The position numbers and the translations under genes were made by a program. A DNA stretch of 64,000 bases from Bacilli bacterium. Its GTDB lineage: Bacteria > Bacillota_I > Bacilli_A > RF39 > UBA660. Below the pieces are notes generated by a model. The model was given only the letters and a program-made list of their open reading frames with translations, ran no database searches and was not told where the DNA came from. The stretch spans positions 65,956-129,955 of the forward strand of contig JAFWJA010000021.1 in NCBI GenBank assembly GCA_017511805.1. Direction: 5' to 3'. Position 1 is the first letter of the stretch; each line of letters begins with the position of its first letter. Positions 9,587 to 60,297 of this stretch are shown here, one piece after another.

Positions 9587-9613
9587 GAAAGTAATATTAC
9601 TTTCTTATTTTTT
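9585..9613. terminator. Bidirectional intrinsic terminator between convergent genes
   Basis: 9-bp stem aagaaagta-atat-tactttctt with T-runs on both strands. Confidence 0.7.
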
Positions 9614-10376
9614 AATTTTGAGTTGCGGGTATTGATCTATAACATTGACTACCATTTAATAAGTATCCATCATCACATGAATAATATTTATTATGAAGTG
9701 GATAACAATAATTTTTATCAGGTTCTCCAAAACTAATCATTTTTAATGAACCATATCCACCAGGGCATTCTTCTGTATCACTTTCATACCCTTCTGATAA
9801 GGATATACAATATGTATCAGAGGTAATATCAACATTCCCATAATCAGTTGTACCATCCGGACATACCCAATTAGCACTAACTACACTAGTACATGTTGTA
9901 CCATCTAATGAATAACCATCAGGACAAGAATAAGTAATAGTAGGTGTTTGTGGTTCAGGTGTTGGAGTAGGAGTAGGTTGTGGTGTAGGATTTGAATTAG
10001 TATTTTGTGATTGCCCTTGATTATTTGATTGACTTTGATTATTAGACTGATTTTGGTTATTAGATTGACTTTGTGAATTAGTTTGATTATTATTAGTTGT
10101 TTGATTCTGATTTTGTTCTTGTTTTTTATTACTATCAGTTTTTGTCTCAGTCTTACTATCAGTTTTGGTATCTTTTTTAGTATCATTATTATTAGTATTA
10201 GTATCTACTTTCTGATTAGCATTTGTACCTTTATTATTACCTTTTTTATTGTTATCATTCTTAGGTCTTAATACTAATATTAAAGACATTATAACAATTA
10301 AAGCTACAATACTAGAAACAATAATTATAATTATTGTTTTCTTATTCTTTTCATTTTTCTTATTATTCTTTCCCAT
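9612..10376 (-). CDS. Signal-anchored membrane protein with Q/N/S/T low-complexity linker and C-terminal Cys-rich repeat domain
   Basis: N-terminal TM TIIIIIVSSIVALIVIMSLILVL. Long SNNQNQSNNQSQ and TPTPTPEP linker. Four degenerate modules C-P-D-G-Y-x-L-D-G-T-x-C (12 Cys in the last 110 aa). Confidence 0.55.
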   Translation of the reverse strand: MGKNNKKNEKNKKTIIIIIVSSIVALIVIMSLILVLRPKNDNNKKGNNKGTNANQKVDTNTNNNDTKKDTKTDSKTETKTDSNKKQEQNQNQTTNNNQTNSQSQSNNQNQSNNQSQSNNQGQSQNTNSNPTPQPTPTPTPEPQTPTITYSCPDGYSLDGTTCTSVVSANWVCPDGTTDYGNVDITSDTYCISLSEGYESDTEECPGGYGSLKMISFGEPDKNYCYPLHNKYYSCDDGYLLNGSQCYRSIPATQN

Positions 10377-11667: not shown

Positions 11668-12201
11668 TTATTTATAATATTCTAAATCTTCATTACTATA
11701 TAATACTAAATCTATATTAATATCTTTATCTTTAATAAAATCTTTAATCATATTAGGTACAAATTTACCTACTTCAACATGACCAAAACCATAAAAACCA
11801 GTACCTAAAGATGGAATAAGTATATTCTTATACTTATTCTTTTCTATTTCATTAAACATATTATTATAAGTATTCTTTAATATATCTAATGAATCATCAC
11901 TATCCCATTTTTTAGGACCTTGTACAAACATAATATCCATATTTAAATTAAAACCAGGTGTTATTCTAATATCACCAGTTTTCATTAAATTATCTCTATT
12001 AAAATCTTTAGATAAATAATTAATATTAAACTCTTTTTGAGTATACTCCTCCAGCTTATCTACATCAGCTTTCTTGAAAATAGCTCCGGAAACTCCAGAT
12101 CCTGATAACATAGCAGGATTAGAGGGATTAACTATTAAGTCATGACCTTTTAATATTTTATCACTAGTTATATCACCAACTAGTATTCTAAAATTACCCA
12201 T
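11668..12201 (-). CDS. Macro-domain protein (ADP-ribose binding / O-acetyl-ADP-ribose deacetylase-like)
   Basis: ILVGDITS..DLIVNPSNP..GSGVSGAIFKKA..ILIPSLGTGFYGF are macro-domain signature segments. RBS GGAGGT; extended -10 TGTTATAAT about 25 nt upstream. Confidence 0.75.
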   Translation of the reverse strand: MGNFRILVGDITSDKILKGHDLIVNPSNPAMLSGSGVSGAIFKKADVDKLEEYTQKEFNINYLSKDFNRDNLMKTGDIRITPGFNLNMDIMFVQGPKKWDSDDSLDILKNTYNNMFNEIEKNKYKNILIPSLGTGFYGFGHVEVGKFVPNMIKDFIKDKDINIDLVLYSNEDLEYYK

Positions 12202-12311
12202 ATAATTACCTCCAGTACAATAAACATTATAACATATATAGAAAGACAGGGGATATCCGGAGCCACATATGAAGACTAGTACAGGATGATAGAGAGGGGA
12301 ATAGGTTTTAC

Positions 12312-13049
12312 TTATTTTAGTTCTATAATTTTATCATATAAACATTTGAATTTATCAAATGTATCTAAATCATTCTTATGATAATGTCCGAAAAACCATT
12401 CTTTGAATTTTGTTTTATTCTTTATTTCTTCCAAATAATCTGTTAATTCGTTGATAGGATAATACTTATTAAAATAATTTTGAATAGTAGTGGGTGCACA
12501 ATGGGTGATAACATAATCTACTTCATAATTATTCTTTTTAAGATTGTTTAAACCATTTTTATATTCATTAATTGTAGGCATTTCTAAGTCCCACCAATTA
12601 ATATTTCTGATTCTATAAGAAGATTTATTGCTTTTTAATTCTTCAATTTTATTAATATCATCTATATTTATAACACCATCTTTAATGTCATGCGAAGCAG
12701 CTCCTCCAAAAACAAATATTTTTCTCCCTTCTATTTCATAGATTTCTCCTCTCATTAAATGGAATATGGATGAATTTATTTTATGAACTTTACCTCCATG
12801 CCATTCTATAACAGGATATTTATTTAATCTATTAAAGTTTTCATGATTACCATCCACAAATAGAGTAGTGAACTTCATTTTAGATAGCTCTTTTAAGTTT
12901 ATTTTCTCTTGTCTAGGTATTTTCTTATCATGCCAGATTCCCCCAAAGTCACCACAAATAATTACATAATCTTCTTTTGTTAGAATAGAGAAGTTCTCTT
13001 TTTTAAATCTACTAAAATCTCCATGACAATCTCCAGTTATATAGATCAT
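12312..13049 (-). CDS. Calcineurin-like metallophosphoesterase
   Basis: Metal-ligand motifs GDCHGD, GDFGG, GNHEN and GHYH in canonical order. Confidence 0.75.
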   Translation of the reverse strand: MIYITGDCHGDFSRFKKENFSILTKEDYVIICGDFGGIWHDKKIPRQEKINLKELSKMKFTTLFVDGNHENFNRLNKYPVIEWHGGKVHKINSSIFHLMRGEIYEIEGRKIFVFGGAASHDIKDGVINIDDINKIEELKSNKSSYRIRNINWWDLEMPTINEYKNGLNNLKKNNYEVDYVITHCAPTTIQNYFNKYYPINELTDYLEEIKNKTKFKEWFFGHYHKNDLDTFDKFKCLYDKIIELK

Positions 13050-13151
13050 GTTATCACCTCCGTCTTATTTATTTAAAATTCTATCTATATCCCTTTCTAC
13101 TTTCAAATTAATTCTATTTAATTTTTCTATGTACCTAGTATTTTTGTTATA

Positions 13152-14507
13152 TCACACTTCAACATTAACCAAATTACTCTCCCAGTTATTTATTACATTT
13201 AGTATATTCTTATCTTCTATTTCATTATTATATTTCCCTAAAGCCATTGTAACACTATTATCTATTACTTCTATTGTTACTAATGATTTATCAGGTTTAT
13301 CTTTTTCTCTTAAGAAATAAACTTGGCTATTAGAATATAGTATATTGTCATAATAAGTTCTTACACAATTATGCATTTGAAAACTTTCTTCTATTAAATC
13401 ATTTAAATTATGTGGTGGATAAATAATATATTTATCATCTTCATATTTATTAAAATCTAACATATCCCCCACAGCATTTAATTTATTATTAATATCTTTA
13501 TTATTTAATAAAAGATATTTTGTATATACTTCATTATATGCTTTATTAAAATCCTTTGGAAAAAGCACATTATTATCATCTAAATCTAATTTAATTTCTA
13601 AACAAAAAGAATAATAATCTAAATAGGAAAATAATAGTGATTCATCTTTTAAAAATAAATCCCCTAATTTATCAAATACTTTTTTAATAGTTTTTTTATC
13701 CATTTTAGAATCATTTATTAGATCAATGTAATAACCAATAAGTTTTAATAATTTTAAATTATCTGTTTTATATATTTTTAATGCCTTATACATATCACTA
13801 TCAATATCATTTTCCACCATAAATTTATAATATTTCTTTTCTAAACCAAATGTATCTATAAAATTACCTTTAAATTTTATTTCTTCTGGAAATGATAACG
13901 CTAATGAATATAGTTTTAAATTAACTAAATATTCAAATTCTTTATGATATAAAGGATTATATGTAATATCTAATATATTAATTTTTTTAGTAGCAAATAT
14001 ATCTTTTAACATCCATAATTTTGTATATTTATACATACTAGTATTTTTTAATTCTTCTAAATTATCTGTATATAAATAACCACTTGGAATTTCAGTGAAA
14101 AAGTAATAAAAATCCCATTCATCATTATCTTCCACACCTTGAGTTTTATACTTATTATAATACTTATATGAACATGATTTATTACTAATGGTGTCTATTA
14201 TTAAATTATCATAAACTCTAAATCTATTTATTAAAGAAATACTGTTTTTCATATACGAATTAATACAGAAATCACTTTTATAATTTATATTAGATCTATA
14301 AATATTTATATAAACTTCATCACATGAAACTACATCAAAATAGTAATAATTAAAAGAAGCACTTGTCTTTTTAATATCATTATCTTCACCTTTTACCATA
14401 TTTATTTCATCAAAATCTATATGTTTGTTATAATTACTACAATACTTATTATCATTCATATCAATATATTTATTCTTCATTTGACTTTTTATATAATCAA
14501 AAACCAT
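13152..14507 (-). CDS. PcfJ-like domain protein (C-terminal), large N-terminal region of unknown function
   Basis: C-terminal QMHNCVRTYYDNILYSNSQVYFLRE resembles the PcfJ-like core (hNCV..Y...h.....hhFLR). Confidence 0.5.
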   Translation of the reverse strand: MVFDYIKSQMKNKYIDMNDNKYCSNYNKHIDFDEINMVKGEDNDIKKTSASFNYYYFDVVSCDEVYINIYRSNINYKSDFCINSYMKNSISLINRFRVYDNLIIDTISNKSCSYKYYNKYKTQGVEDNDEWDFYYFFTEIPSGYLYTDNLEELKNTSMYKYTKLWMLKDIFATKKINILDITYNPLYHKEFEYLVNLKLYSLALSFPEEIKFKGNFIDTFGLEKKYYKFMVENDIDSDMYKALKIYKTDNLKLLKLIGYYIDLINDSKMDKKTIKKVFDKLGDLFLKDESLLFSYLDYYSFCLEIKLDLDDNNVLFPKDFNKAYNEVYTKYLLLNNKDINNKLNAVGDMLDFNKYEDDKYIIYPPHNLNDLIEESFQMHNCVRTYYDNILYSNSQVYFLREKDKPDKSLVTIEVIDNSVTMALGKYNNEIEDKNILNVINNWESNLVNVEV

Positions 14508-14985
14508 AACACCACCTCTAATTAGAATATAACATAAATAAAAAAAGAAAAATACTGATTCTGAATTAGAAATAGCAAAAAATCTATTTTACCCTTTATT
14601 TATATCAAATAATTTTTTTCATAAATAATTCTCCTTTTCTTCCTGGGTGACCATATATTAACACATAGACTTCTTAATCAACCTGATAACTTTTTAATCA
14701 TAATGATTATTTTTTAGTAGAAAGAAAATAATCCAATAAATTATCTGAGTTTTATTAATTGTTCCAATTAGCTTGATGGTAGTAGTTGAGTGGTTCAAAA
14801 GGTAAAAGAATGAACAGTATTATTTAAAAAAATCATTCGACTATGAAAGCAAGTAATATTACCATAATAAAATTACTATTAGAAAGAGATGAAATAAATG
14901 AATTTAAAGAATTAAAAAAAGGAAATGACATTTATCGACAAATTATGCTATAATCTGAATAGAGATTATACATGGGAGTAGGAAT

Positions 14986-16092
14986 ATGGCAGAGAATAGA
15001 AAATTTTTATCAGAACAGATTATTACATATATAGGTAACAAAAGATCGTTATTAGACTTTATTGGAAAATCAGTAAAACTGGTAAAAAAAGAACTTGGTA
15101 AAGACAAACTAAAGACAGCAGATTTATTTTCAGGATCGGGAATTGTAGCAAGATATTTGAAACAGTATAGTACAGATCTATATGTAAATGATTTGGAGAA
15201 TTATGCTAGTACAATAAATAAGTGTTACTTGACTAATAAATCTAGTATTGATAAGAAAGAATTAAATAGGTGGTATAAATATTTAAAAAGTAATCTTTCA
15301 GATGATAATTTAAAATCTGGTTTTATCACTGAATTATATAGTCCTAAAGATGATAGTGATATAAAAGAGGGTGAAAGAGTTTTCTACAAGTCTAGAAATG
15401 CCAAATACATAGATACTGAGCGTAAATTAATAAAAAGAATTCCAAATAAGTATAAAAACTTGTTTCTTGGTCCACTTTTATATGAAGCTTCTAATAAGAC
15501 TAATACATCTGGTGTCTTCAAAGGTTTTTACAAAAATTCTGATACTAATATAGGTCAATTTGGTGGAAACGGTAAAAATGCATTAAAAAGAATATTGTCT
15601 GATATTGAAGTAAAAAAACCAGTATTGAGTAATTACGATTGCAATGTGAAAGTATATCAAGAGGATACAGTAATACTCGCAAAAAAACTACCTGAAATGG
15701 ATCTTGTTTATTTAGATCCACCTTATAATCAACATCCTTATGGGTCAAATTACTTTATGTTGAACTTAATTAATGATTATAAAAAACCTACAAAAATAAG
15801 TAAGGTATCAGGCATTCCAGAGAATTGGAATAAAAGTGATTTTAATAAAAAATCATCGTCCTTAGCAATGATGAATTCAATTTGTAAAGATTTAAAAACA
15901 AAATATATATTGATTTCATTTAATTCTGAGGGGTTTATTACGTATAACGAAATGGTAAAAATGTTGTCTAAATATGGAACTGTAAGAGTATTTGACAAAA
16001 AATATAATGCTTTTAAAGCTAGTAGAAATCTTAATAAAAGAGATTTATATGTAGATGAGTATTTATTCTTATTAAAGAAGGAGAGTGAATAA
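14986..16092 (+). CDS. D12-class (Dam-like) N6-adenine DNA methyltransferase
   Basis: N-terminal YIGNKRSLLDFI (Dam Y/W-x-G-x-K), motif I DLFSGSG and motif IV DPPYN. Extended -10 TGCTATAAT upstream. Confidence 0.8.
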   Translation: MAENRKFLSEQIITYIGNKRSLLDFIGKSVKLVKKELGKDKLKTADLFSGSGIVARYLKQYSTDLYVNDLENYASTINKCYLTNKSSIDKKELNRWYKYLKSNLSDDNLKSGFITELYSPKDDSDIKEGERVFYKSRNAKYIDTERKLIKRIPNKYKNLFLGPLLYEASNKTNTSGVFKGFYKNSDTNIGQFGGNGKNALKRILSDIEVKKPVLSNYDCNVKVYQEDTVILAKKLPEMDLVYLDPPYNQHPYGSNYFMLNLINDYKKPTKISKVSGIPENWNKSDFNKKSSSLAMMNSICKDLKTKYILISFNSEGFITYNEMVKMLSKYGTVRVFDKKYNAFKASRNLNKRDLYVDEYLFLLKKESE

Positions 16093-16094
16093 TA

Positions 16095-16496
16095 ATGCTG
16101 GGAGATGTATTAAAATCAAGAATCAAAGAATTATCTAAAGCATCAACAAAAAAAGTTGGAGATGATGCTTTTTGGGTAATTCTTAGAAATATTGCAAAAG
16201 ATGAGATAATAGAATTATATCCTAAAAAGGTTGATAGCGATACTATAGTACCTATTTATTTCGAAATATTATCATCAAATGAAACTTATATTCCTAAATA
16301 TTTTAAGGAAAAGTTAGATTCAAATCATCAAGAAAGATATAGAGTAATAAATAGGAATTTGTTTACAAGCAACGCATTTCATCCTGATGGCTTAGCAAAT
16401 CAGGAGGGAATTACTGCATATAAGGATTTTAATGAGAGTAAAAAAGGTGAAAGAATAGTATATCAAGGAGATGTTAATTATGCTAATAAACAATAA
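16095..16496 (+). CDS. Hypothetical 133-aa protein in the MTase/GmrSD-like operon
   Basis: Starts 3 nt after the MTase stop and overlaps the next gene by 26 nt. No recognisable motif. Confidence 0.4.
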   Translation: MLGDVLKSRIKELSKASTKKVGDDAFWVILRNIAKDEIIELYPKKVDSDTIVPIYFEILSSNETYIPKYFKEKLDSNHQERYRVINRNLFTSNAFHPDGLANQEGITAYKDFNESKKGERIVYQGDVNYANKQ

Positions 16497-18057
16497 AGAC
16501 GTGGATAACGATTATATTAATTTATATTCATTAAGTGATAAAAAAATAGGAATTCCAATTTTTCAAAGATTTTATGCATGGAAGGAAAATCATATTAAGA
16601 CACTATTAGAAGATATAACAAATGCAATTAACAGTGATAAGGAATTATATTTGTTAGATTTTATATATTATAAAGAAAATGGTAAGATAATGCTTGCGGA
16701 TGGCCAACAAAGAATAGTTACAATAAATCTATTAATCAAGGCAATAAATGAAAAAATAGAAGTGTTAAATGAATCCGTTGATCAAATAAAACCGTTTGAT
16801 ATAAGTTATGATATTAAAGAAAATGATGATAGTTATAATGAATCATATCACAATTATATAAAATCACCATTTAAGAATGTTTATACTTGCATTTCAAATT
16901 TTATTGATGTTAATGTTGATAATCTACAGAAAATACGAGAAATAATCACAAAAAGAATATTTATCTATTTTAAAAAATGTTCTAATGCAGATGATGCTTT
17001 TTCAATATTTACTCAAATAAATACTGGTGGGAAACCATTAACTAAGGAAGAAATAATAAAAACAGCATTAGATCAATATTCAAAAATATATGATGTTAAA
17101 ATTAATACACTAAATATTAAGGATCTTAGACAGGATGTGGTTAGTTATTATAAAATAGTCGAAGATAATTATTCTATTAACTTTGATCAGATGACTATAA
17201 TGACATTCTTTAAAGAATATGTTACTAAAGACAAAGAAAGTTTTATAAAATTTAAAGAAGCAATAAACTCGTTAGATAAAATTAAGAATAATCCTTTAAG
17301 ATACATTATTAAATATATTAATAGACCAATTTTATTTGATGTAATGAATGTTTTGACTATGAAAGGTATAGATTTGAAGCTTAATAGAAAGTATGTAGAG
17401 AAAGTAATGTTACCACTATGCTTTGCATCTATAACAATGTCTTTTAAATTAAGTAATCCCTCTTTAATTAATCATTTAACAACAGATTTGATTAAAAAAA
17501 TAAAAAAAGATGAAAGTGTAAATGATTTAGAACTTTATATTGCGGAATTTATAGATGATAATTCTGCTGGATTTAAAATGACAAATGAAGAATTCTCTAA
17601 AGCATTAGGAGAACACAATAATGGTTATAGAAATATTAAAAAAGCATTAATGATAATGGATGTAATATATAGAAATACTGCTGGAGAATTAAATGTTGAG
17701 TCTATTAATTTAGAACATATTTATCCACAGAAACCAGATACTGAATGGGCAACAAAAGGGTGGCCAACAAGCCATGATGAACAAATTGAATTAATTGATA
17801 ATATAGGTAATTATTTGTTATTAAATGAAGCAATAAACAAGCGAGTACAGAATAAATATATAACATACAAAGTTCCAGAATATAATAACATTATTCCAAA
17901 AGATCTTATGTTACAAACAGAAATTAATACAGTGAATTTTGATGACTTTGAAACCAAAAAAGAAGAGTATATTTATGAAAGACAAGTAGAAATAGCTAAA
18001 AAAATTAGAACGGGTTTACCATTTGGTCAAAAACTAATTGTAAGTCAAAGAGTATAA
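16471..18057 (+). CDS. DUF262 (ParB/GmrS-like NTPase) + DUF1524 (GmrD/His-Me-like nuclease) fusion; GmrSD/SspE/BrxU-type defence nuclease
   Basis: IGIPIFQRFYAW and LADGQQRIVT are the DUF262 hallmarks (I-P-x-Y-Q-R, DGQQR). C-terminal LEHIYPQKP..GNYLLLNEAINKR is the DUF1524 hallmark. Confidence 0.8.
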   Translation: MLIMLINNKDVDNDYINLYSLSDKKIGIPIFQRFYAWKENHIKTLLEDITNAINSDKELYLLDFIYYKENGKIMLADGQQRIVTINLLIKAINEKIEVLNESVDQIKPFDISYDIKENDDSYNESYHNYIKSPFKNVYTCISNFIDVNVDNLQKIREIITKRIFIYFKKCSNADDAFSIFTQINTGGKPLTKEEIIKTALDQYSKIYDVKINTLNIKDLRQDVVSYYKIVEDNYSINFDQMTIMTFFKEYVTKDKESFIKFKEAINSLDKIKNNPLRYIIKYINRPILFDVMNVLTMKGIDLKLNRKYVEKVMLPLCFASITMSFKLSNPSLINHLTTDLIKKIKKDESVNDLELYIAEFIDDNSAGFKMTNEEFSKALGEHNNGYRNIKKALMIMDVIYRNTAGELNVESINLEHIYPQKPDTEWATKGWPTSHDEQIELIDNIGNYLLLNEAINKRVQNKYITYKVPEYNNIIPKDLMLQTEINTVNFDDFETKKEEYIYERQVEIAKKIRTGLPFGQKLIVSQRV

Positions 18058-18072
18058 TTTTAAAAAAATAAG

Positions 18073-18108
18073 AAGCAAAATTAATTGCTTCCTTTTTCTT
18101 CCTTTTTT
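18073..18108 (+). terminator. Intrinsic terminator
   Basis: Stem gaagcaa-attaa-ttgcttc, then ctttttcttcctttttt. Confidence 0.7.
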
Positions 18109-18160
18109 ATAGTGCCTCTGATTTGCCGTTCGCTACATAAAAACATACACTTTTTAAACA

Positions 18161-18212
18161 TACCGATAACGGTATAAAACATATTGACAAATACTACCGA
18201 TAACGGTATAAT
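18161..18212 (+). promoter_or_regulatory. Consensus sigma-A promoter (TTGACA-N17-TATAAT) with two identical 16-bp operator-like repeats TACCGATAACGGTATA
   Basis: -35 TTGACA at 18184-18189, a 17-nt spacer, and -10 TATAAT at 18207-18212. The repeat occurs at 18161-18176 and 18195-18210; the second copy overlaps the spacer and -10. Each repeat is a 14-bp imperfect dyad (TACCGAT/AACGGTA). Confidence 0.7.
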
Positions 18213-18231
18213 ATAAACAGAGGTGAAAATT

Positions 18232-19158
18232 ATGGAATTTATGACTACAAAAGAAGCTGTGCAAAAATGGAATATTAGTGAAAGAAGAATAAGACAATTA
18301 TTACAAGATGGAAGAATTGAAGGTGCTGTTAAAGTAGGTAATAATTGGAATATTCCTATTAATGCTAATAAACCAGCTGATAAAAGAAGTGTTAAACTAG
18401 ATAATACTGAATTTAAATTTGATTTACCCGATAATTATTTTGATAAAGTTGATAAATTAAATAAAGAATTAAATTCAAAAAGACCTATATCAAAAGAAAC
18501 TTTAAAATCTTTAAAAGAATCTATTAATTTAGAGTGGACTTATAATAGTAACGGTATAGAAGGAAACACATTAACTTTAAGAGAAACACAAATTGTTTTA
18601 GAAGGTATTACTGTTGGAGGTAAATCTTTAAAAGAACATTTAGAGGTTATAAATCATGAACAAGCAATATTATTCTTAGATGATCTTATTAAAGATAAAG
18701 AACCTGTAACAGAATGGAATATAAAAAATATTCATCAATTAGTATTAAAAGAAATAGATGATGATAACGCTGGTAAATATAGAGATGAAAATGTAAAAAT
18801 AAAAGGTGCTACACATATTCCACCAGATTATTTAATAGTTCCAGAATTAATGGAAAAATTAATTATTAATTTTGAAGATTGGAAGAAATATCATCCGATT
18901 ATTAGAGCAGCATTATTACATGGTGAATTAGTTAAGATACATCCATTTGTTGATGGTAATGGTAGAACTTCAAGATTAGTTATGAACTTATCTTTAATGA
19001 ATAGTGGATATCTTCCAGTAATTGTAAAAAAAGAAAAAAGATTAGAATATTATAATGCTTTAGATAAAGCACATACTACTGGAGATTATACAGACTTTGT
19101 TAAATTAGTTAATAAATTAGAAATTGAAATGTTAAATAAATATCTAGAATTGTTGTAG
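18232..19158 (+). CDS. Fic-family protein with N-terminal MerR/excisionase-type HTH
   Basis: Canonical Fic motif HPFVDGNGRTSR. N-terminal inhibitory-helix-like motif SNGIEGN (S-x-x-x-E-G). N-terminal MTTKEAVQKWNISERRIRQLLQDGRIEG is an HTH. Likely start is ATG 18232 with RBS GAGGTG; the ORF track starts at GTG 18223. Confidence 0.8.
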   Translation: MEFMTTKEAVQKWNISERRIRQLLQDGRIEGAVKVGNNWNIPINANKPADKRSVKLDNTEFKFDLPDNYFDKVDKLNKELNSKRPISKETLKSLKESINLEWTYNSNGIEGNTLTLRETQIVLEGITVGGKSLKEHLEVINHEQAILFLDDLIKDKEPVTEWNIKNIHQLVLKEIDDDNAGKYRDENVKIKGATHIPPDYLIVPELMEKLIINFEDWKKYHPIIRAALLHGELVKIHPFVDGNGRTSRLVMNLSLMNSGYLPVIVKKEKRLEYYNALDKAHTTGDYTDFVKLVNKLEIEMLNKYLELL

Positions 19159-19168
19159 GAGGTATTAT

Positions 19169-21511
19169 ATGACAAGTAGAATTTTAAATGATTCCAGTAT
19201 TTGGGATTTACATATCCATACGTGCAATAGTCCAAAATCATCCGGTGAATTTCAGAAAATGGACATAGATAAGTATATCAATACATTATTAGATGTATTT
19301 AAGGATTATCCAGATTTGTCTTTAATTTCTTTTACGGATCATAACATTATTTCTTATGATGTTTACAAAGCTTTCATAGATAGAAAAACTGATATTAATA
19401 TTATACCTGGAATCGAAATAGATGTTGATATTGATGGAATAAAAGATAGCAAGCATATGTTATTTTATTTTAATATTGATTTAGAAAAATTAGAAGATTT
19501 TTCTAAAAAAATAAATGACTATATGAATAATAGAAAAAGTGTTAAAATTGAAAATATTTTGGATTTCTTGATATCAAATAAAATAGAATTTATTATTAGT
19601 CCACATGCTTTTAAACAAGGAAAACGTGGAATTGAATATGATTGGAATGATGAAGATTCCGCTGGTTCAAATGCTCATAAGTTTATGGATCAATTGTTTT
19701 GTTTTTGGGAAGCGTCTGGACATTCTGACATAGCTAATGCTATAGAATTTTTAAGACGAATTGATAAAGAAGATATAATATCTGTTATTTCTTTTTCAGA
19801 TTCATCAGATGAAAAAAAATTAAGAGAATATTTATCAAATCCTCCTCAATACTTTAAATCATTACCAAATTATAAAGGATTGCAATTAGCTGGTACAGAT
19901 TGTAGAAGAATTTTAAAAGAAAAGAAATGCATTAATGAAGATAATACTGGTAATTTTATTGGTAGTGTTTTTATAAATGGTGAAGAAATAAAATTATCAG
20001 ATAGATTAAATACAATAGTTGGTGGTAGAGGTAGTGGGAAATCTTTATTATTGGACAATATGGCACTGTCTATGGATAGTTCAATAAGAGAAAATAAAGT
20101 TCTTAAAGATGATAGAATTGATTTTTTAGATACAATTAATATTCAATTAAAAAACTTAGATGGAACAATTATAGATTTAGATAACAAAAAAATTGATTTT
20201 TTTGATCAATCATATGTTTCGAAAATTTTTACTTCAAATAACATAAGTGAAGAAATAGAAACATATTTCGCTGATGAATTTAAAAACATTGAAAATATAG
20301 ATAAAGAATACGAACTACAACTTATAAAATCAAAATATGAGGAGTACTTAAAAAAGGATATTATTACTAAACCTACAAGTAATATTTCAAATTTTGTTGG
20401 TAAGTATAAAAAAATAGATGAAAAATCCGTTGGATTAAAGATTAGAAAAACTGATATACATACTTTAAATAAAATAGATTACAGTATCGATGAAGCAATA
20501 AAGTATGCCAATAATGGTTGTAAACTTATTCCTAAAGATTTAAAAGGAAATAAAAATATAAACAATGCATTATTAAATTTTATAAAGGTAGTAACAGCAG
20601 AAGCACATGATTATAATAATGAACGAATAAAAGAAAACTTAGAGGATATTATTAAGGAAAAATGTTTGAGTCAAGATGAAGAAAAAAATAAAGAATTAAA
20701 AGTAAGAAATACTGAGGAAGAATTATTTGTTAATCATTTAAAATTTGAATGTGATCCATATGTTGAAAGAACAAATATTGTAAATTCTATTTTGAAATTA
20801 CAGGTAGATTATAAAGAAGAAAAAAATAAATATGATATAAAAGATGGAGTAGATGATAGTAAATTTAAATTTGAAAAAAAGATTATATTTGAAAGCCCTT
20901 TGCAATATTTTAGGAAAATGTGCGAGAAATATATTGGAGTAAAAGCTAAATCATATAGTGATAAAGAGCTATATCATGCATTTATATATGAAATAAATGA
21001 TCTTATTAAAGATTCAAAAACTGTATCTGATTTTATCAGCGACTTAAAAAGTTTGAAAGATTATGAAGTGAAGTATGAAAGTAATATTCTTTATGGCAAA
21101 GATATTGAAAATCTAGAAAATATAGTCAAGATGTCACCAGGAACTCAAACAAATATTTTAATGGAATACATAGTATCAAAACAAACTGAAATTCCACTAT
21201 TGATTGATCAACCAGAAGATAATATAGATAATGAAACTATATATACTAAATTAACAGAATGGTTTGAAAAATTAAAATTAAAAAGACAAGTTATTGTAGT
21301 CACTCATGATGCAAATATTGTTATAAATGCAGATGCTGAAAATGTAATTATAGCTAACAAAAATGAGAAAAATGAATTTACTTATACTTATGGGGCTTTA
21401 GAGTATAATGGAATTCTTGAAAGAATCTCAGTTATTTTAGACGGTGGTGTTGAGGCTGTAGAAAGAAGGTTAAAGAAATATGGAAGAAAAAAAGATAATA
21501 GTAACAATTGA
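19169..21511 (+). CDS. Fusion protein: N-terminal PHP phosphoesterase domain + split SMC/RecN-type ABC ATPase
   Basis: PHP motifs WDLHIHTCNS, FTDHN, PGIEID and ISPHAF. RecF/RecN-like N-terminal ATPase entry FINGEEIKLSDRLNTIVGGRGSGKSLL (Walker A). C-terminal signature-like MSPGTQT, Walker B LLIDQPEDNID and H-loop VVTHDANIV, separated by about 330 aa of K/E-rich probable coiled coil. Starts 10 nt after the Fic stop. Confidence 0.6.
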   Translation: MTSRILNDSSIWDLHIHTCNSPKSSGEFQKMDIDKYINTLLDVFKDYPDLSLISFTDHNIISYDVYKAFIDRKTDINIIPGIEIDVDIDGIKDSKHMLFYFNIDLEKLEDFSKKINDYMNNRKSVKIENILDFLISNKIEFIISPHAFKQGKRGIEYDWNDEDSAGSNAHKFMDQLFCFWEASGHSDIANAIEFLRRIDKEDIISVISFSDSSDEKKLREYLSNPPQYFKSLPNYKGLQLAGTDCRRILKEKKCINEDNTGNFIGSVFINGEEIKLSDRLNTIVGGRGSGKSLLLDNMALSMDSSIRENKVLKDDRIDFLDTINIQLKNLDGTIIDLDNKKIDFFDQSYVSKIFTSNNISEEIETYFADEFKNIENIDKEYELQLIKSKYEEYLKKDIITKPTSNISNFVGKYKKIDEKSVGLKIRKTDIHTLNKIDYSIDEAIKYANNGCKLIPKDLKGNKNINNALLNFIKVVTAEAHDYNNERIKENLEDIIKEKCLSQDEEKNKELKVRNTEEELFVNHLKFECDPYVERTNIVNSILKLQVDYKEEKNKYDIKDGVDDSKFKFEKKIIFESPLQYFRKMCEKYIGVKAKSYSDKELYHAFIYEINDLIKDSKTVSDFISDLKSLKDYEVKYESNILYGKDIENLENIVKMSPGTQTNILMEYIVSKQTEIPLLIDQPEDNIDNETIYTKLTEWFEKLKLKRQVIVVTHDANIVINADAENVIIANKNEKNEFTYTYGALEYNGILERISVILDGGVEAVERRLKKYGRKKDNSNN

Positions 21512-21764
21512 TAAAACAAAAGTTGAATTACAATCAAATAATCCTAACATTAAGAATCTAGTTGAAAAAATATTAGATCAAGATGAAAAGTTTGATTTTA
21601 ATAATATAGAAATAGAATGTTCTGATGATAATTTTGATAAAGATAGTTTTAAAAAAATTATAGTTGATTCAGTGTTTGAATTTAAAAAACAGTTAATTAT
21701 CGAAGAAAAAGATAATAATGATAAAATTGAAAAAATAGAAAAAGAAAAGAAAAATAATGAATAA
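21480..21764 (+). CDS. Small K/E-rich hypothetical protein overlapping the 3' end of the PHP-ATPase gene
   Basis: 94-aa ORF with a 32-nt overlap to the upstream gene and an intrinsic terminator immediately after it. Confidence 0.4.
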   Translation: MEEKKIIVTIDKTKVELQSNNPNIKNLVEKILDQDEKFDFNNIEIECSDDNFDKDSFKKIIVDSVFEFKKQLIIEEKDNNDKIEKIEKEKKNNE

Positions 21765-39977: not shown

Positions 39978-40016
39978 ATATTTATGATATAATACTTCGT
40001 GTTTGAAGGGGATATA

Positions 40017-41159
40017 ATGTTAGAAAGAACACAGTTTAAAAAAGATGAAAAAAGAAATATATTCATTGATAAAGATGCATTAGTAGAAAGAAAAGAGTCT
40101 TTAGATGATTTTGTTACTAATGAACCATTACTTAATAAATCAAAGTTTAGTAAATCAGATTTTCCACAAGAAATTAAGTTTAATAATGCAATTGAAGGAA
40201 TTGATGATGATGTTAATGAGATTAGTTCATTATTAAGCAGAATGTTTGTTAGTGTTAATAGAGATAAAAAAAGAATTACTAATGTATATAAAGCATATAA
40301 ATATATTTTAAGTAAAAAGAATATAAATAAGGATTCATTAAAGAAATTATATTCTATATTAAGTGATGGATTATTACAGTCATGTGATTCTAGAAGGATG
40401 GGAGAGTATTATAGACAGGGTGATGTTTATATAATGAGAGGCATAAGTATGGAAAGATTTTTCCGTGGAGTAGAGCCTGAACATGTTTCTGAATATATGG
40501 ATATATTATTTGATTATATAAATAATGATAATAGTGATAAAACAGATATAGATTCATTTATTAAGTCTCAAATAATACATGCTTATTGTGTATATATTCA
40601 TCCATATTTTGATGTTAATGGTAGAACATCTAGAACTCTAGGTATGTGGTATTTATTAAATAAAAAAGACCTAAATTATATTACATTTAATAGATCAATA
40701 TCATTTTTAAAGAGTAAATATGAAAAAAGTCTTATTGAATTAAGAGATAGGGGAGATATGACTCCATTTTTGAAATATATGTTAGATGCTGAAAGATTGG
40801 AATTAGAAAAAGAATATATCATTAATAATGTTGAAAAGAATATTGGTAAAAAATTAACCAATGAAGAATATCTTACTTTAGAATATTTTTTAAGTTTAAA
40901 TGGTAGATTAACTTTACTTGATTTAATACATATTTATAATGATTACAATGCTAAGAAAAAGAAGTTAGAAGTATTAGATGAAAAGATAAATCCATTATTA
41001 GAAAAAGGAATATTAAAAAAGACTTTTGATACTAAACATTTTATATCATCTGATCTACCTAATTCTAGAATAGTATTAAATAGAGAATTATTAGATGTAG
41101 ATGAAAAGAAAATTAAAAAACTAAGACTTGAACATTATACAAAAGAAAACCAAGATTAA
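40017..41159 (+). CDS. Fic-family protein with non-canonical motif HPYFDVNGRTSR
   Basis: H-P-Y-F-D-V-N-G-R replaces the canonical H-P-F-x-(D/E)-G-N-G-R (Gly changed to Val before NGR). RBS GAAGGGG upstream of ATG 40017; extended -10 TGATATAAT. The ORF track starts at GTG 39999. Confidence 0.7.
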   Translation: MLERTQFKKDEKRNIFIDKDALVERKESLDDFVTNEPLLNKSKFSKSDFPQEIKFNNAIEGIDDDVNEISSLLSRMFVSVNRDKKRITNVYKAYKYILSKKNINKDSLKKLYSILSDGLLQSCDSRRMGEYYRQGDVYIMRGISMERFFRGVEPEHVSEYMDILFDYINNDNSDKTDIDSFIKSQIIHAYCVYIHPYFDVNGRTSRTLGMWYLLNKKDLNYITFNRSISFLKSKYEKSLIELRDRGDMTPFLKYMLDAERLELEKEYIINNVEKNIGKKLTNEEYLTLEYFLSLNGRLTLLDLIHIYNDYNAKKKKLEVLDEKINPLLEKGILKKTFDTKHFISSDLPNSRIVLNRELLDVDEKKIKKLRLEHYTKENQD

Positions 41160-49105: not shown

Positions 49106-49150
49106 ACTAAAAAAAGAATTATTATTTTCTTAATAATAATTCTTCTTTTT
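49106..49150 (-). terminator. Intrinsic terminator (12-bp stem) overlapping the stop of the 49122 gene
   Basis: Stem agaattattatt-ttctt-aataataattct with T-runs on both sides. Confidence 0.7.
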
Positions 49151-50432
49151 TAAATTCAATACCCCAATCAATTTTATAATCAGGAACTAATTTATTTTTG
49201 AATGGCATTACTCTAGGTATTAAGAATACTGCTTCACATGGCTCCATTTTCTTTAGTTCTTCAACACTAATTAATGGTTTCTTTTCTGATTCATTTCCAC
49301 ATAATTCAGATATTTTATCTAGTGTTTTTAGATCACTACTATATAGATATACTATATTAGCAATACATAGTCTTATAATTGCTAATTTTTCTCTTCCATA
49401 TGCGTTTTCTAGATTAACTATACCTTGAATTAAGAATGTGAATATTATACCTATACTTCTTGAATAATTAATTATTTCAGTAAAGTTTTTAATAGGATAT
49501 AAACTATCAAATTCATCAATTATAATATTTACCTTTTTATTCTTTTCTCCATATATATTAATAGCTTCAAATGCTTGATTTATAAATAAAGATACTAAAT
49601 TACTACTATAATCATTATAACCAGTTTTAATAAAGATAGCAGTCTTCTTATTAGAAATAGAACTCATATCAAAATCAGTCTTACTCATCATATTAGATAA
49701 GTTTTCTCTACTAACATATCTTTTAAGTTTTTGATTAAATACTGAAACTATACCTCCTCTTGTTTCTCTAGGTGATGTTAAAGTTCCAGATACACTATAG
49801 AATACTGGTGTATCTTTTCCAATTTCTTTTAAGAATTCTTCACAGCCCTTATCATCTAATAATTTATTAGCTAAATCAAATACATTTTTTAGAGTTACTT
49901 CTTCTTTATTCTTTTCTAGTAAATATAATGATAATCCAGTAAAGTAATCACTAGCAGAGTTAGTCCAGAATGGATCACTTTCATGACTAGTAGAACTAAA
50001 TAAATAGTATCCTAAATCTTCTAATATAGTTACACATTTATCTATATTCTTTTCATCATATAATCTTTTAGCTAAACTTAGTGGATTATAGTAATTACCA
50101 TATTTAGTTTCATCAAAATCAATTACTATTACATTGTAACCTCTATTACTAAACTCATTAGCAGTTTGTTCATATATTTCACTTTTAGTATCATTAATAA
50201 TAATAGATTCACCTGCTAGCATTGATAATTTAGTTAATGGTAATACTATAGTTTGTGTTTTACCAGAACCAGTAGCGCCAATTATCATTGAATGGTCATT
50301 ACCTTTAGTTGTATATACTGTATCTTTATCATAGATAACTGGTATACCTGATTTTTCAACCCCTTCTTTATATTTAATTTCTTGTAGTCTTTCTTTTAAG
50401 TCTGTTTCTTTTTCCCAACTAGAATAAATCAT
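49122..50432 (-). CDS. Soluble VirD4/TraG/TraD-like (type IV coupling protein family) P-loop ATPase lacking N-terminal TM helices
   Basis: HSMIIGATGSGKTQTIVLP (Walker A in the T4CP context), NIIIDEFDSL (Walker B) and RSIGIIFTFLIQGIVNLENAYG (resembles the T4CP RS.G.....QS..QL..YG motif). Confidence 0.5.
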   Translation of the reverse strand: MIYSSWEKETDLKERLQEIKYKEGVEKSGIPVIYDKDTVYTTKGNDHSMIIGATGSGKTQTIVLPLTKLSMLAGESIIINDTKSEIYEQTANEFSNRGYNVIVIDFDETKYGNYYNPLSLAKRLYDEKNIDKCVTILEDLGYYLFSSTSHESDPFWTNSASDYFTGLSLYLLEKNKEEVTLKNVFDLANKLLDDKGCEEFLKEIGKDTPVFYSVSGTLTSPRETRGGIVSVFNQKLKRYVSRENLSNMMSKTDFDMSSISNKKTAIFIKTGYNDYSSNLVSLFINQAFEAINIYGEKNKKVNIIIDEFDSLYPIKNFTEIINYSRSIGIIFTFLIQGIVNLENAYGREKLAIIRLCIANIVYLYSSDLKTLDKISELCGNESEKKPLISVEELKKMEPCEAVFLIPRVMPFKNKLVPDYKIDWGIEFKKEELLLRK

Positions 50433-58746: not shown

Positions 58747-58830
58747 TATATCATAAATTATTTATAATTAATATATAATATTAGTACTTTACTATTATTT
58801 TATGTGGTAAAATGAGTATAGGTGATAGTT

Positions 58831-60297
58831 ATGGTAAATATTTCTAAATCTTTATATTGTAATTATGTTCAATGTAAGAAACTAGTTTGGTTATTAAAAA
58901 ATAAACCAGATGAATATGAAGAAACTAAAAATGATGTAGTTCTTGCTAATGGAAATAGAGTAGGAGACCTAGCTAGATCTTACTTTGGTAAGTATGCATT
59001 AGTTAAATATGATGAAGTACTAATCAATATGATAATGGAAACTAAAAAGTATTTAAAAACAGATTCTATTATATGTGAAGCCTCATTTAAATTTAATAAT
59101 CTATTTGCGAGTATAGATATACTTAAGATTGAAGATGATGGTCTTACTATATATGAAGTAAAGAGTTCTACTGAAGTAAAAGATATATATTTAGATGATG
59201 CATCTTTTCAAGCATATATATTAAAAAAACTGGGATATAAAGTTAAATCTGTTAATATAATGCATGTTAATGGTGATTATGTTTTAGGAGATAAATTTGA
59301 TATTAATTCATATTTTGTTATTGAAGATATTACAGATACATCAATAGAAAAAGAGTCTGAATTAGAAGAAAATGTTAAAGAACTAAATGAGATTTTAGAT
59401 AGTAATAAAGAACCTAATATTGATATTGGTATGCATTGTTCTAATCCATATAAATGTCCTTATTATAAGTATTGTACTAAGCATTTACCAGAACCTAATG
59501 TCTTTGATATAAATGGTCTAAATAAGAAACAAAAGTTTAAGTATTATTATGAGGGTAAAATAACTTTTGAGGATCTAATTCATGAAGATTTAAATAATAA
59601 ATACTTGGAACAAATAAATTTTGAAATAAATGATTTAAAACCGAAGATAAATAAAGAAGCTATAAAAGAGTTAATGTCTACGTTAAAATATCCTTTATAT
59701 TTCTTAGATTATGAGACATGTCAGTTTGCAATACCTGAAATAAAGGGTACTAAACCATATCAAGTACTTACATTTCAGTATTCATTACATATAATGGATG
59801 AAAAAGGTAATCTAACTCATAAAGAGTTCTTAGCAGATTCAAGTGATACAGATTTTGTTAGACATTTTGCAGAGAGTCTTATTAAAGACATACCAGATGA
59901 TGGTAGCGTAATTATTTATAATAAGTCTTTTGAACCAGCTAGAAATAGAGAAATAATTAAGATGTATCCTGAATATAAAGAAGGATTAGAAAGAATAAAT
60001 AATAATATAGTAGATTTTATGGATCCATTTAATGATAGAGATTATTATACTAAGGAGATGAAAGGTTCATACTCAATAAAGTATGTTTTACCAGCACTTT
60101 ATCCAAATGATCCTAGTTTAGATTATCATAATTTACCTCTTGTTCATAATGGAGAAGAAGCATCAACTACTTTTGTAGAATTAAGAGATATGCCAAAAGA
60201 AAAACAAGAGGAAATAAGAAAAGGACTTCTTGTATACTGTGAACTAGATACTTATGCGATGGTTAAAATATATGAAAAGTTTAAAGAACTAGTATAA
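58831..60297 (+). CDS. DUF2779-like (RecB/PD-(D/E)xK-like nuclease superfamily) protein
   Basis: N-terminal ISKSLYCNYVQCKKLVWL matches the DUF2779 start (LSKS.F..G.QC.K.LWL). Contains IDILKIEDDGLTIYEVKSST (a D...E-x-K-like block). RBS AGGTGA before ATG 58831. Confidence 0.45.
   Translation: MVNISKSLYCNYVQCKKLVWLLKNKPDEYEETKNDVVLANGNRVGDLARSYFGKYALVKYDEVLINMIMETKKYLKTDSIICEASFKFNNLFASIDILKIEDDGLTIYEVKSSTEVKDIYLDDASFQAYILKKLGYKVKSVNIMHVNGDYVLGDKFDINSYFVIEDITDTSIEKESELEENVKELNEILDSNKEPNIDIGMHCSNPYKCPYYKYCTKHLPEPNVFDINGLNKKQKFKYYYEGKITFEDLIHEDLNNKYLEQINFEINDLKPKINKEAIKELMSTLKYPLYFLDYETCQFAIPEIKGTKPYQVLTFQYSLHIMDEKGNLTHKEFLADSSDTDFVRHFAESLIKDIPDDGSVIIYNKSFEPARNREIIKMYPEYKEGLERINNNIVDFMDPFNDRDYYTKEMKGSYSIKYVLPALYPNDPSLDYHNLPLVHNGEEASTTFVELRDMPKEKQEEIRKGLLVYCELDTYAMVKIYEKFKELV

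Follow-up and report, generated by a model that had tools for sequence, protein, structure and literature searches.

A three-gene operon of uncultured Bacillota links an adenine methyltransferase, a small winged-helix protein and a GmrSD-family nuclease in a candidate restriction-modification defence

A 64,000-nt stretch of DNA from an uncultured Bacilli bacterium (assembly GCA_017511805.1, contig JAFWJA010000021.1, positions 65,956–129,955 of the forward strand), referred to here as the window, carries an operon of three genes at positions 14986–18057 of its + strand. The genes encode an N6-adenine methyltransferase (MTase), a protein of only 133 amino acids (aa) and a nuclease of the GmrSD family. 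Most likely, the operon represents a type of restriction-modification (R-M) defence that has not been described before. On balance, the three genes probably act together as one system in which N6-methyladenine (m6A) marks host DNA as “self”, and the template for this reading is DndI, a nuclease coupled to phosphorothioate (PT) modification of the DNA backbone. A first-pass annotation of the window, made by a model from the letters alone, had described an MTase, a 133-aa open reading frame (ORF) and a DUF262/DUF1524 gene in an overlapping operon. That description is borne out, as the three ORFs lie where it had placed them and searches against Pfam confirm the domains. The features of the operon are as follows.

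14925–14954, + strand: sigma-70-like promoter, ATGACA-18 nt-TATAAT with TG before the -10, ~30 nt 5′ of the MTase ATG.
14986–16092, + strand: D12/alpha-class N6-adenine MTase, 368 aa (Pfam PF02086, PADLOC MTase_II).
16095–16496, + strand: winged-helix protein by predicted fold, 133 aa, without a Pfam, NCBIfam or PADLOC model.
16480–18057, + strand: GmrSD-family nucleoside triphosphatase (NTPase)/nuclease, 525 aa (GmrSD_N and GmrSD_C), or 528 aa if translation begins at the ATG at 16471.
18072–18100, + strand: intrinsic-terminator-like hairpin (18072–18091) and T run at the operon end, with a 7-bp stem containing 3 GC pairs followed by CTTTTTCTTC.

The site at 14925–14954 is the putative operon promoter, a role assigned by consensus match; its hexamers agree with the consensus at 11 of 12 positions, and the -10 is of the extended type. 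At the other end, the terminator-like site at 18072 is the sole one on the + strand within 14400–18300, and four such sites were observed on both strands of the region where 0.4 would be expected. The genes between these boundaries are tightly packed. The MTase stop codon occupies 16090–16092 and the ATG of the small ORF, preceded by AAGGAG, follows at 16095, which leaves a gap of 2 nt rather than the 3 nt given at first. Of the two ATG codons available to the nuclease, the second (16480) is most likely the start, since it has an AAGGAG 9 nt before it and fits the 525-aa database entry and all homologues. Its overlap with the small ORF is therefore probably 17 nt; the 26 nt of the first-pass annotation is correct only if translation begins at the first ATG, at 16471. 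The three genes thus appear to form a single promoter-to-terminator transcription unit (14925–18100) with coupled starts.

The three-gene arrangement recurs far beyond chance. Loci were first collected by way of the small protein (L001–L026, comprising seven from an exact protein look-up, 18 from GTDB species representatives, and L008, found via the protein P0197). All 26 of them show the order MTase, small ORF, GmrSD gene, with the genes co-oriented and either abutting or overlapping. The carriers are metagenome-assembled genomes (MAGs) of uncultured Acholeplasmatales, Bacilli, Erysipelotrichaceae, Christensenellaceae or Clostridia. A second linkage query, which was run against ascertainment bias, used an alignment of the nuclease to search metagenome contigs. 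Here every one of the 28 clade members (45% identity or more) had the small ORF upstream, and the MTase was present in each of the 26 with sufficient upstream sequence, whereas 19 distant GmrSD-like genes from the same scan (22–28% identity) were without MTase and without small ORF. A recurrent MTase partner in the neighbourhoods of homologues, a prospect raised by the first-pass annotation, is therefore found from both directions. The trio is also kept in the divergent branches L029/L030 and L084/L085. In the former pair, the small protein takes a 221-aa form with an added C-terminal Cys4 zinc ribbon.

The genes that flank the cassette vary by locus and include those for a ribosomal protein, endonuclease I and sugar metabolism. 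In L078/L079, the cassette sits in an element with integrase, Bro-N and excisionase genes. Because the neighbourhoods are unrelated and one location is an integrase-bearing element, the cassette moves as a unit. A single decayed copy was seen among the loci examined. In L017 (6383–7953), the GmrSD gene is broken up into ORFs of 153 and 311 aa, next to an intact MTase gene, small ORF and helix-turn-helix (HTH) gene. The nuclease has thus been lost and the MTase kept, and no copy without an MTase was observed. HTH genes of the XRE type, located either divergently upstream or directly upstream and co-oriented, accompany 27 of the 44 loci with enough upstream sequence. These XRE genes hold controller-like positions, from which a regulatory role may be supposed. 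Upstream of the window MTase (14508–14985), neither tblastn with four HTH proteins nor inspection of ORFs of at least 20 aa revealed an XRE gene or its remnant.

The nuclease matches Pfam GmrSD_N with E=7e-26 (92 bits against a cut-off of 33.2) and GmrSD_C with E=7e-13 (49.1 bits against a cut-off of 23). Its architecture consists of an N-terminal DUF262/ParB-like NTPase domain (IPIFQRFYAW, ADGQQR and INTGGKPL), a helical middle, and a C-terminal DUF1524 His-Me finger (NLEHIYP and NIGNYLLL..NK..N). In an alignment of 24 clade members that are 46–69% identical to the window nuclease (alignment A2), the motifs IPIFQRFYxW, ADGQQR, INTGGKPL, NLEH(I/V)(Y/F)P and NIGN..LL..NK..N are invariant. Such invariance at that level of identity means that selection acts on the ParB-like NTPase and on the His-Me nuclease alike. 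The equivalent NTPase and nuclease residues are needed for defence by HEC-06 (bioRxiv 10.1101/2024.01.29.577857). Among PADLOC models, the window protein matches HEC-06 (the best family, 3e-32), Orf5 and SspE, with the HEC-06 match falling in two to three separate stretches, the best of which spans residues 21–98 only.

Structure and sequence profile agree on the nearest relatives of the nuclease. Its AlphaFold2 model (predicted local distance difference test score, pLDDT, 86.9) retrieved DndI in a Foldseek search (9jfl, 5.7e-12), ahead of SspE (7drr/7drs, ~3e-8) and BrxU (2e-6). The template modelling scores for DndI and SspE are only 0.35–0.44, owing to domain placement, and identity to DndI is ~17%. 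A sequence profile searched against PDB sequences likewise placed DndI first (1.5e-8), followed by SspE-like entries, and did not find BrxU. The Tyr position with which DndI and SspE sense PT (P-x-Y-Q-R) is an invariant Phe in the clade, located in the IPIFQRFYxW motif (residues 24–34 of the window protein). This substitution may bear on the sensing of a different, hydrophobic mark. Plasmid relatives of the nuclease are distant: identity does not exceed 39% in short N-terminal matches and is 22% in the one match of near full length.

The 133-aa protein, encoded between the MTase and the nuclease, has no match in Pfam, NCBIfam, PADLOC or PDB sequences, apart from a sole marginal phmmer match in the PDB (0.083) to the winged-helix protein AF_1382. 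Among 34 members of the small-protein family, no Pfam family at E≤10 was common to more than four, and an hhalign comparison with HARE-HTH (the N-terminus of Bacillus subtilis RpoE) gave a probability of 0.2%. A high-confidence structural model of the protein nevertheless shows a winged-helix DNA-binding domain, with a putative recognition helix and loop at ...QERYRVINRNLFTSNAFHPDGLANQ..., and not a nuclease fold. Neither the model nor an alignment of the family (alignment A1) contains a PD-(D/E)XK, HNH, GIY-YIG or phospholipase D (PLD) fold or motif. The database entry identical to the window protein comes from a Bacilli MAG and is annotated as hypothetical. Homologues number 243, with 62–100% identity among the best 120 listed and lengths of ~123–138 aa throughout. 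Searches of viral contigs, phage genomes and plasmids for the small protein gave no match.

An exhaustive hidden Markov model search of 1.84 billion representatives yielded only 37 relatives of the small protein. Among these are fusion proteins of 320–322 aa that carry an HNH nuclease C-terminal to the winged-helix domain (P0262, P0264, P0277 and P0278). Where their context is known, the fusion genes lie directly 3′ of a complete cassette. On the strength of the winged-helix fold and of HNH fusions encoded directly after the cassette, the winged-helix protein appears to behave as a targeting module for nucleases. The small protein has the highest mean pairwise identity across loci (0.61, compared with 0.58 in the MTase and 0.50 in the nuclease), and its identity correlates with that of the nuclease at r=0.73 vs r=0.42 with that of the MTase. 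Because its identity tracks the nuclease, HNH fusions exist, and it is the most conserved of the three, the winged-helix protein is probably a reader of DNA or of methylation status, or else an adaptor, that would bind the nuclease and act on its behalf.

Several cassettes are extended by extra effector genes after GmrSD (L028, 1941–9051; L078/L079, 3733–8787; L080, 796–2614). The added genes encode the winged-helix–HNH (wH-HNH) fusion of 320–322 aa, followed by a GIY-YIG/Schlafen-type helicase and a 440-aa protein, or by a T5orf172 (GIY-YIG-like) or other RAMA (DUF4357) protein. In L078/L079, the entire effector array is contained within the integrase/Bro-N/excisionase element. RAMA domains also occur within the cassette proper. 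For instance, P0197 (L008, 1647–3593) is a clade nuclease of 48% identity that ends in a C-terminal RAMA/DUF4357 domain (…HSPSGAASFLAGYSINGYTFW…) and still lies within an MTase, small ORF, GmrSD cassette. In N6A R-M systems, RAMA has been put forward as a reader domain, and its fusion to ParB-type nucleases was reported there by Iyer et al. (PMC4738411).

The MTase, for its part, has the features of the D12 class. It matches Pfam MethyltransfD12 (PF02086) with E=4e-22 (79.6 bits against a gathering cut-off of 22) over profile positions 1–252 of 253, and PADLOC MTase_II (PDLC03257) over its full length with E=3e-119. The YxGNK, DLFSGSG and DPPYN motifs named in the first-pass annotation are read in the translation as motif X (YIGNKR), motif I (DLFSGSG, residues 46–52) and motif IV (DPPYN, residues 253–257). 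Their order, with a middle (target-recognition) region between motifs I and IV, is that of the alpha group, and the DPPY block is 97% conserved among cassette MTases.

The nearest plasmid relative of the MTase, at 44% identity, is an MTase of Paracoccus marcusii pCP157_17, whose gene overlaps by one base the start of a gene for an EcoRI-family restriction endonuclease (REase). This REase keeps the EcoRI recognition segment GNAIER, and the MTase clade thus includes a classical protective R-M methylase. The middle region is conserved among the cassettes as much as the catalytic regions, and the block LGPLL..AS...NTSGVFKGFYKN..GQFGG is common to the cassette MTases and the Paracoccus enzyme. Because of this conservation and the common block, a constant specificity of the cassette MTases is suggested, possibly with an AATT core, although this is a lead only. 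A phmmer search of the PDB gave no solved relative of the MTase at E≤0.01 and so no structural help on specificity.

The closest parallel among known systems is that of DndI in the IscS-DndBCDE-DndI system (PDB 9jfl). Like the window nuclease, DndI combines a DUF262 NTPase domain (DGQQR) with DUF1524, and it is the best match by both structure and profile. It is coupled to a DNA-modification module of the host whose mark spares self DNA (PMC11662687), as the window nuclease is coupled to an MTase. The two differ in that the DndI mark is a backbone phosphorothioate installed by Dnd proteins, whereas the partner here is an N6-adenine MTase, and in that DndI acts alone, whereas a winged-helix protein is always interposed in the cassette. 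No Dnd or Ssp modification genes occur among the annotated neighbours in the window or at the inspected loci. SspE of the SspABCD-SspE system, the second-best structural match, is likewise a GmrSD-family nuclease tied to a host modification that is read as “self”. At ~770 aa, SspE is larger than the 525-aa window nuclease, senses PT, is active only with the mark, and has neither an MTase nor a small partner.

Type IV enzymes such as GmrSD, BrxU and HEC-06 possess the same two Pfam domains and catalytic motifs, and are NTP-dependent nucleases of defence islands. They stand alone, being modification-dependent or single-gene systems, whereas members of the window clade are never stand-alone. The clade therefore has the domains and motifs of the GmrSD family but lacks the independence from a cognate MTase that defines type IV. 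The winged helix has a parallel of its own in DpnI, HhiV4I and their relatives, in which such a domain also reads DNA or its methylation status for a nuclease (PMC11037411). These are fusions, however, that act as stand-alone, m6A-dependent type IV enzymes and rarely have MTase neighbours, while the winged helix of the cassette is a separate polypeptide encoded beside an MTase.

The proposed use of a type IV-like family as the restriction arm of an R-M system has a parallel in McrBC-related, NTP-dependent systems that have their own MTases and act against unmodified DNA (PMC12707154). Those systems employ an AAA+ NTPase and other MTases and have no gene for a winged-helix adaptor, in contrast to the ParB-like DUF262 domain and His-Me nuclease of the window. 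The McrBC-related example cited in that paper is one that we take to be LlaJI. Compared with a classical type II system, as represented by the Paracoccus pair with its 44%-identical MTase, the cassette has the same M-first order of abutting, co-oriented genes that move as a unit. The REase is replaced by a winged helix and an NTPase/His-Me nuclease, so that an NTP-free REase of a known family is absent. The intact NTPase motif implies what would be nucleotide-dependent control, which has no counterpart in orthodox type II enzymes. PADLOC itself detects MTase_II and partial HEC-06, Orf5 and SspE matches in the window, and calls no system. Literature searches that paired DUF262/DUF1524 or GmrSD with methyltransferase, 6mA or winged helix turned up no account of the three-gene arrangement.

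The favoured reading of these observations is an m6A-marked-self defence that would operate in four steps. First, the alpha-class MTase would place m6A on host DNA at a particular motif. Second, the winged-helix protein and the GmrSD-like enzyme would read DNA at this motif, or the methylation status of the motif. Third, the DUF262 NTPase would serve as a switch, and the DUF1524 His-Me finger would nick or cut DNA that lacks the mark. Fourth, as in DndI, the mark would stimulate the NTPase and thereby release the nuclease from marked self DNA. DndI is a constitutively active nickase, toxic without its modification genes, in which mark-stimulated NTPase activity leads to a conformational change and release (PMC11662687). 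Protection of self by methylation and an NTPase-driven release step are, for the window system, what we infer by this analogy.

The trio is best regarded as a single modification-based self/non-self system because of its strict linkage, operon coupling and mobility as a unit, and also because of the protective-MTase ancestry, the controller-like genes and the loss of the nuclease in L017. DndI is the best template because the nearest relatives of the nuclease are DndI and SspE. RAMA domains in some cassettes, either fused to the GmrSD protein or present on a neighbouring nuclease, are also counted in favour. The first-pass annotation had offered methylation-marked self, by analogy with Ssp and Dnd, as one of two readings, and it is the better-supported direction given the linkage, the proximity of DndI and SspE, the protective-MTase clade and the XRE genes. 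Within that reading, the m6A reader is more likely to be the conserved winged-helix protein than the DUF262 domain. To call this a “new R-M logic” was an overstatement, since the logic is known for phosphorothioate from DndI and SspE (PMC11662687), and McrBC-like machines with MTases that act on unmodified sites are also known (PMC12707154).

Several points weigh against an m6A-marked-self defence on the DndI model. All carriers are uncultured MAGs or metagenome contigs, with none on a known plasmid or phage. The window copy and ~40% of cassettes have no HTH gene, so controller-type regulation is not universal. Neither DndI nor SspE needs a partner protein, and the analogy therefore leaves the small protein unexplained. 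A k-mer search for avoided sites in the window and ~384 kb of cassette-bearing loci gave no clear target motif; GATC and CATG showed a generic depletion and TAATTA a mild one, while GAATTC and CAATTG were not depleted. Finally, the data do not separate a DndI-like mode, in which methylation releases the nuclease, from an SspE-like mode, in which methylation licenses it.

A bolder version of the proposal can be put forward only tentatively. The cassette may be the first base-methylation counterpart of the PT-sensing Dnd and Ssp systems, with the winged-helix protein reading m6A status and gating the NTPase switch of the GmrSD protein. Self would then be recognized actively, through either mark-stimulated release or licensing, and not by steric blocking of a site, and the mark would be common to a set of “plug-in” effectors (wH-HNH, T5orf172-RAMA and GmrSD-RAMA).

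Licensing after the manner of SspE is also an explanation in its own right, if a rather unlikely one. The nuclease would be inert until m6A on host DNA was sensed, by the winged-helix protein or DUF262, and would then attack invaders, so that loss of the MTase would end the defence and not the cell. SspE, the second-closest solved relative, works in this way (PMC11662687), strict linkage to an MTase fits equally well, and the RAMA domains recruited by some cassettes are predicted m6A readers. On the other hand, the XRE genes, the M-first coupled gene order, and the existence of one nuclease-less but no MTase-less copy form the pattern expected of a nuclease that endangers an unmethylated host. 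Moreover, the closer relative is not SspE but DndI, an enzyme that is toxic in the absence of its mark.

It is improbable that the operon combines two separate modules, i.e., an MTase with some other role (serving another REase, orphan or regulatory) and a two-protein type IV enzyme, made of the winged helix and GmrSD, that is directed at differently modified phage DNA. Canonical GmrSD, BrxU and HEC-06 do stand alone (PMC12707154; bioRxiv 10.1101/2024.01.29.577857), some type IV enzymes of prokaryotes use a winged-helix domain as an m6A-dependent reader (PMC11037411), and this part of the window is a small defence island that also holds Fic and TrlF/Ppl-like genes. Nuclease and MTase are, however, together in one operon at every locus examined, in branches that have diverged to a minimum identity of 39–46%. 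A neighbouring MTase is a criterion against modification dependence in PMC11037411, and the window ORFs that were scanned include no other REase candidate.

Similarly improbable is a role for the 133-aa protein as a transcriptional controller, equivalent to a C protein, beside a GmrSD-like protein that would be a methylation-sensitive nuclease by itself. P0262, P0264, P0277 and P0278 are fusions of the domain to an HNH nuclease, which would be unusual for a pure regulator, and 27 of 44 loci have an XRE gene in addition to the small protein. The small protein is also more conserved than either enzyme (mean pairwise identity 0.61), and its pairwise identities follow those of the nuclease (r=0.73). 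The other reading of the first-pass annotation, in which the MTase and the 133-aa protein, as its REase, make up a classical type II pair beside an unrelated type IV neighbour (the GmrSD-like gene), can practically be set aside: the gene does directly follow the MTase, a common place for an REase and that of the Paracoccus enzyme, but its product has a high-confidence winged-helix model with no nuclease fold or motif, the GmrSD gene is never absent from the examined loci, and catalysis is joined to the domain only by fusion to a separate HNH domain.

Downstream of the operon, an HTH-Fic gene (18223–19158) matches Pfam Fic (2e-23) and PADLOC PDC-S04 and SoFic, and has a promoter at 18184–18212 with perfect TTGACA-17-TATAAT. 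The palindrome TACCGATAACGGTA occurs twice here (18161–18174 and 18195–18208), with the second copy overlapping the Fic -10, and the pair looks like a candidate autorepressor operator of the Fic gene. Next is a gene for a 780-aa ATPase (19169–21764) without a match in Pfam. It has a sub-threshold match to the NCBIfam TrlF family (2e-71), and its C-terminus is Ppl-like (PADLOC, 2e-20); its N-terminus was guessed from the sequence to be PHP-like, which no search supported. A 94-aa ORF overlaps the end of this gene, and the two are separate candidate defence genes that are not adjacent to the cassette elsewhere. The Fic and TrlF/Ppl-like genes were considered as parts of the system and rejected, given that they follow the terminator with a promoter of their own and are not cassette-adjacent at other inspected loci.

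Directly upstream of the operon, macro-domain, metallophosphoesterase and PcfJ-like genes occupy 11668–14507 on the - strand; much further along the window, at 49122–50432, is a gene for a type IV secretion system (T4SS) coupling protein. The PcfJ-like set and the coupling protein suggest that parts of a conjugative element are left in a region that is chromosomal in its other genes (HtrA, M48 peptidase and large surface repeat proteins). Two further genes have no evident link to the operon, namely those for a second Fic-domain protein of 386 aa (39999–41159) and for a 491-aa protein with a DUF2779/Cas4-like nuclease domain (58822–60297). The - strand at 9612–10376 encodes a 254-aa low-complexity protein in which N, Q and T abound; it has SQSNNQ-type repeats and many Cys residues at its C-terminus, and its gene is overlapped by an antisense ORF. 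This protein is probably secreted or located at the surface.

In the clade described here, a GmrSD scaffold is permanently wired to an ordinary adenine methylase by way of a small winged-helix protein that was previously unrecognized. Three small genes of this kind offer a tractable system in which to learn how a ParB-like NTPase switch couples recognition of a mark to nuclease activity. If the proposed reading is true, the principle of a sensed self mark, known from DndI and SspE, would extend from phosphorothioate to the commonest base modification of bacteria. The cassette would be a new three-gene defence system, which current tools split into an orphan MTase and HEC-06-like matches, and the winged-helix protein would supply a new candidate reader domain for DNA or its m6A status. 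Part of the methylome and of the phage resistance of the abundant uncultured Bacillota of gut and rumen would thereby be explained.

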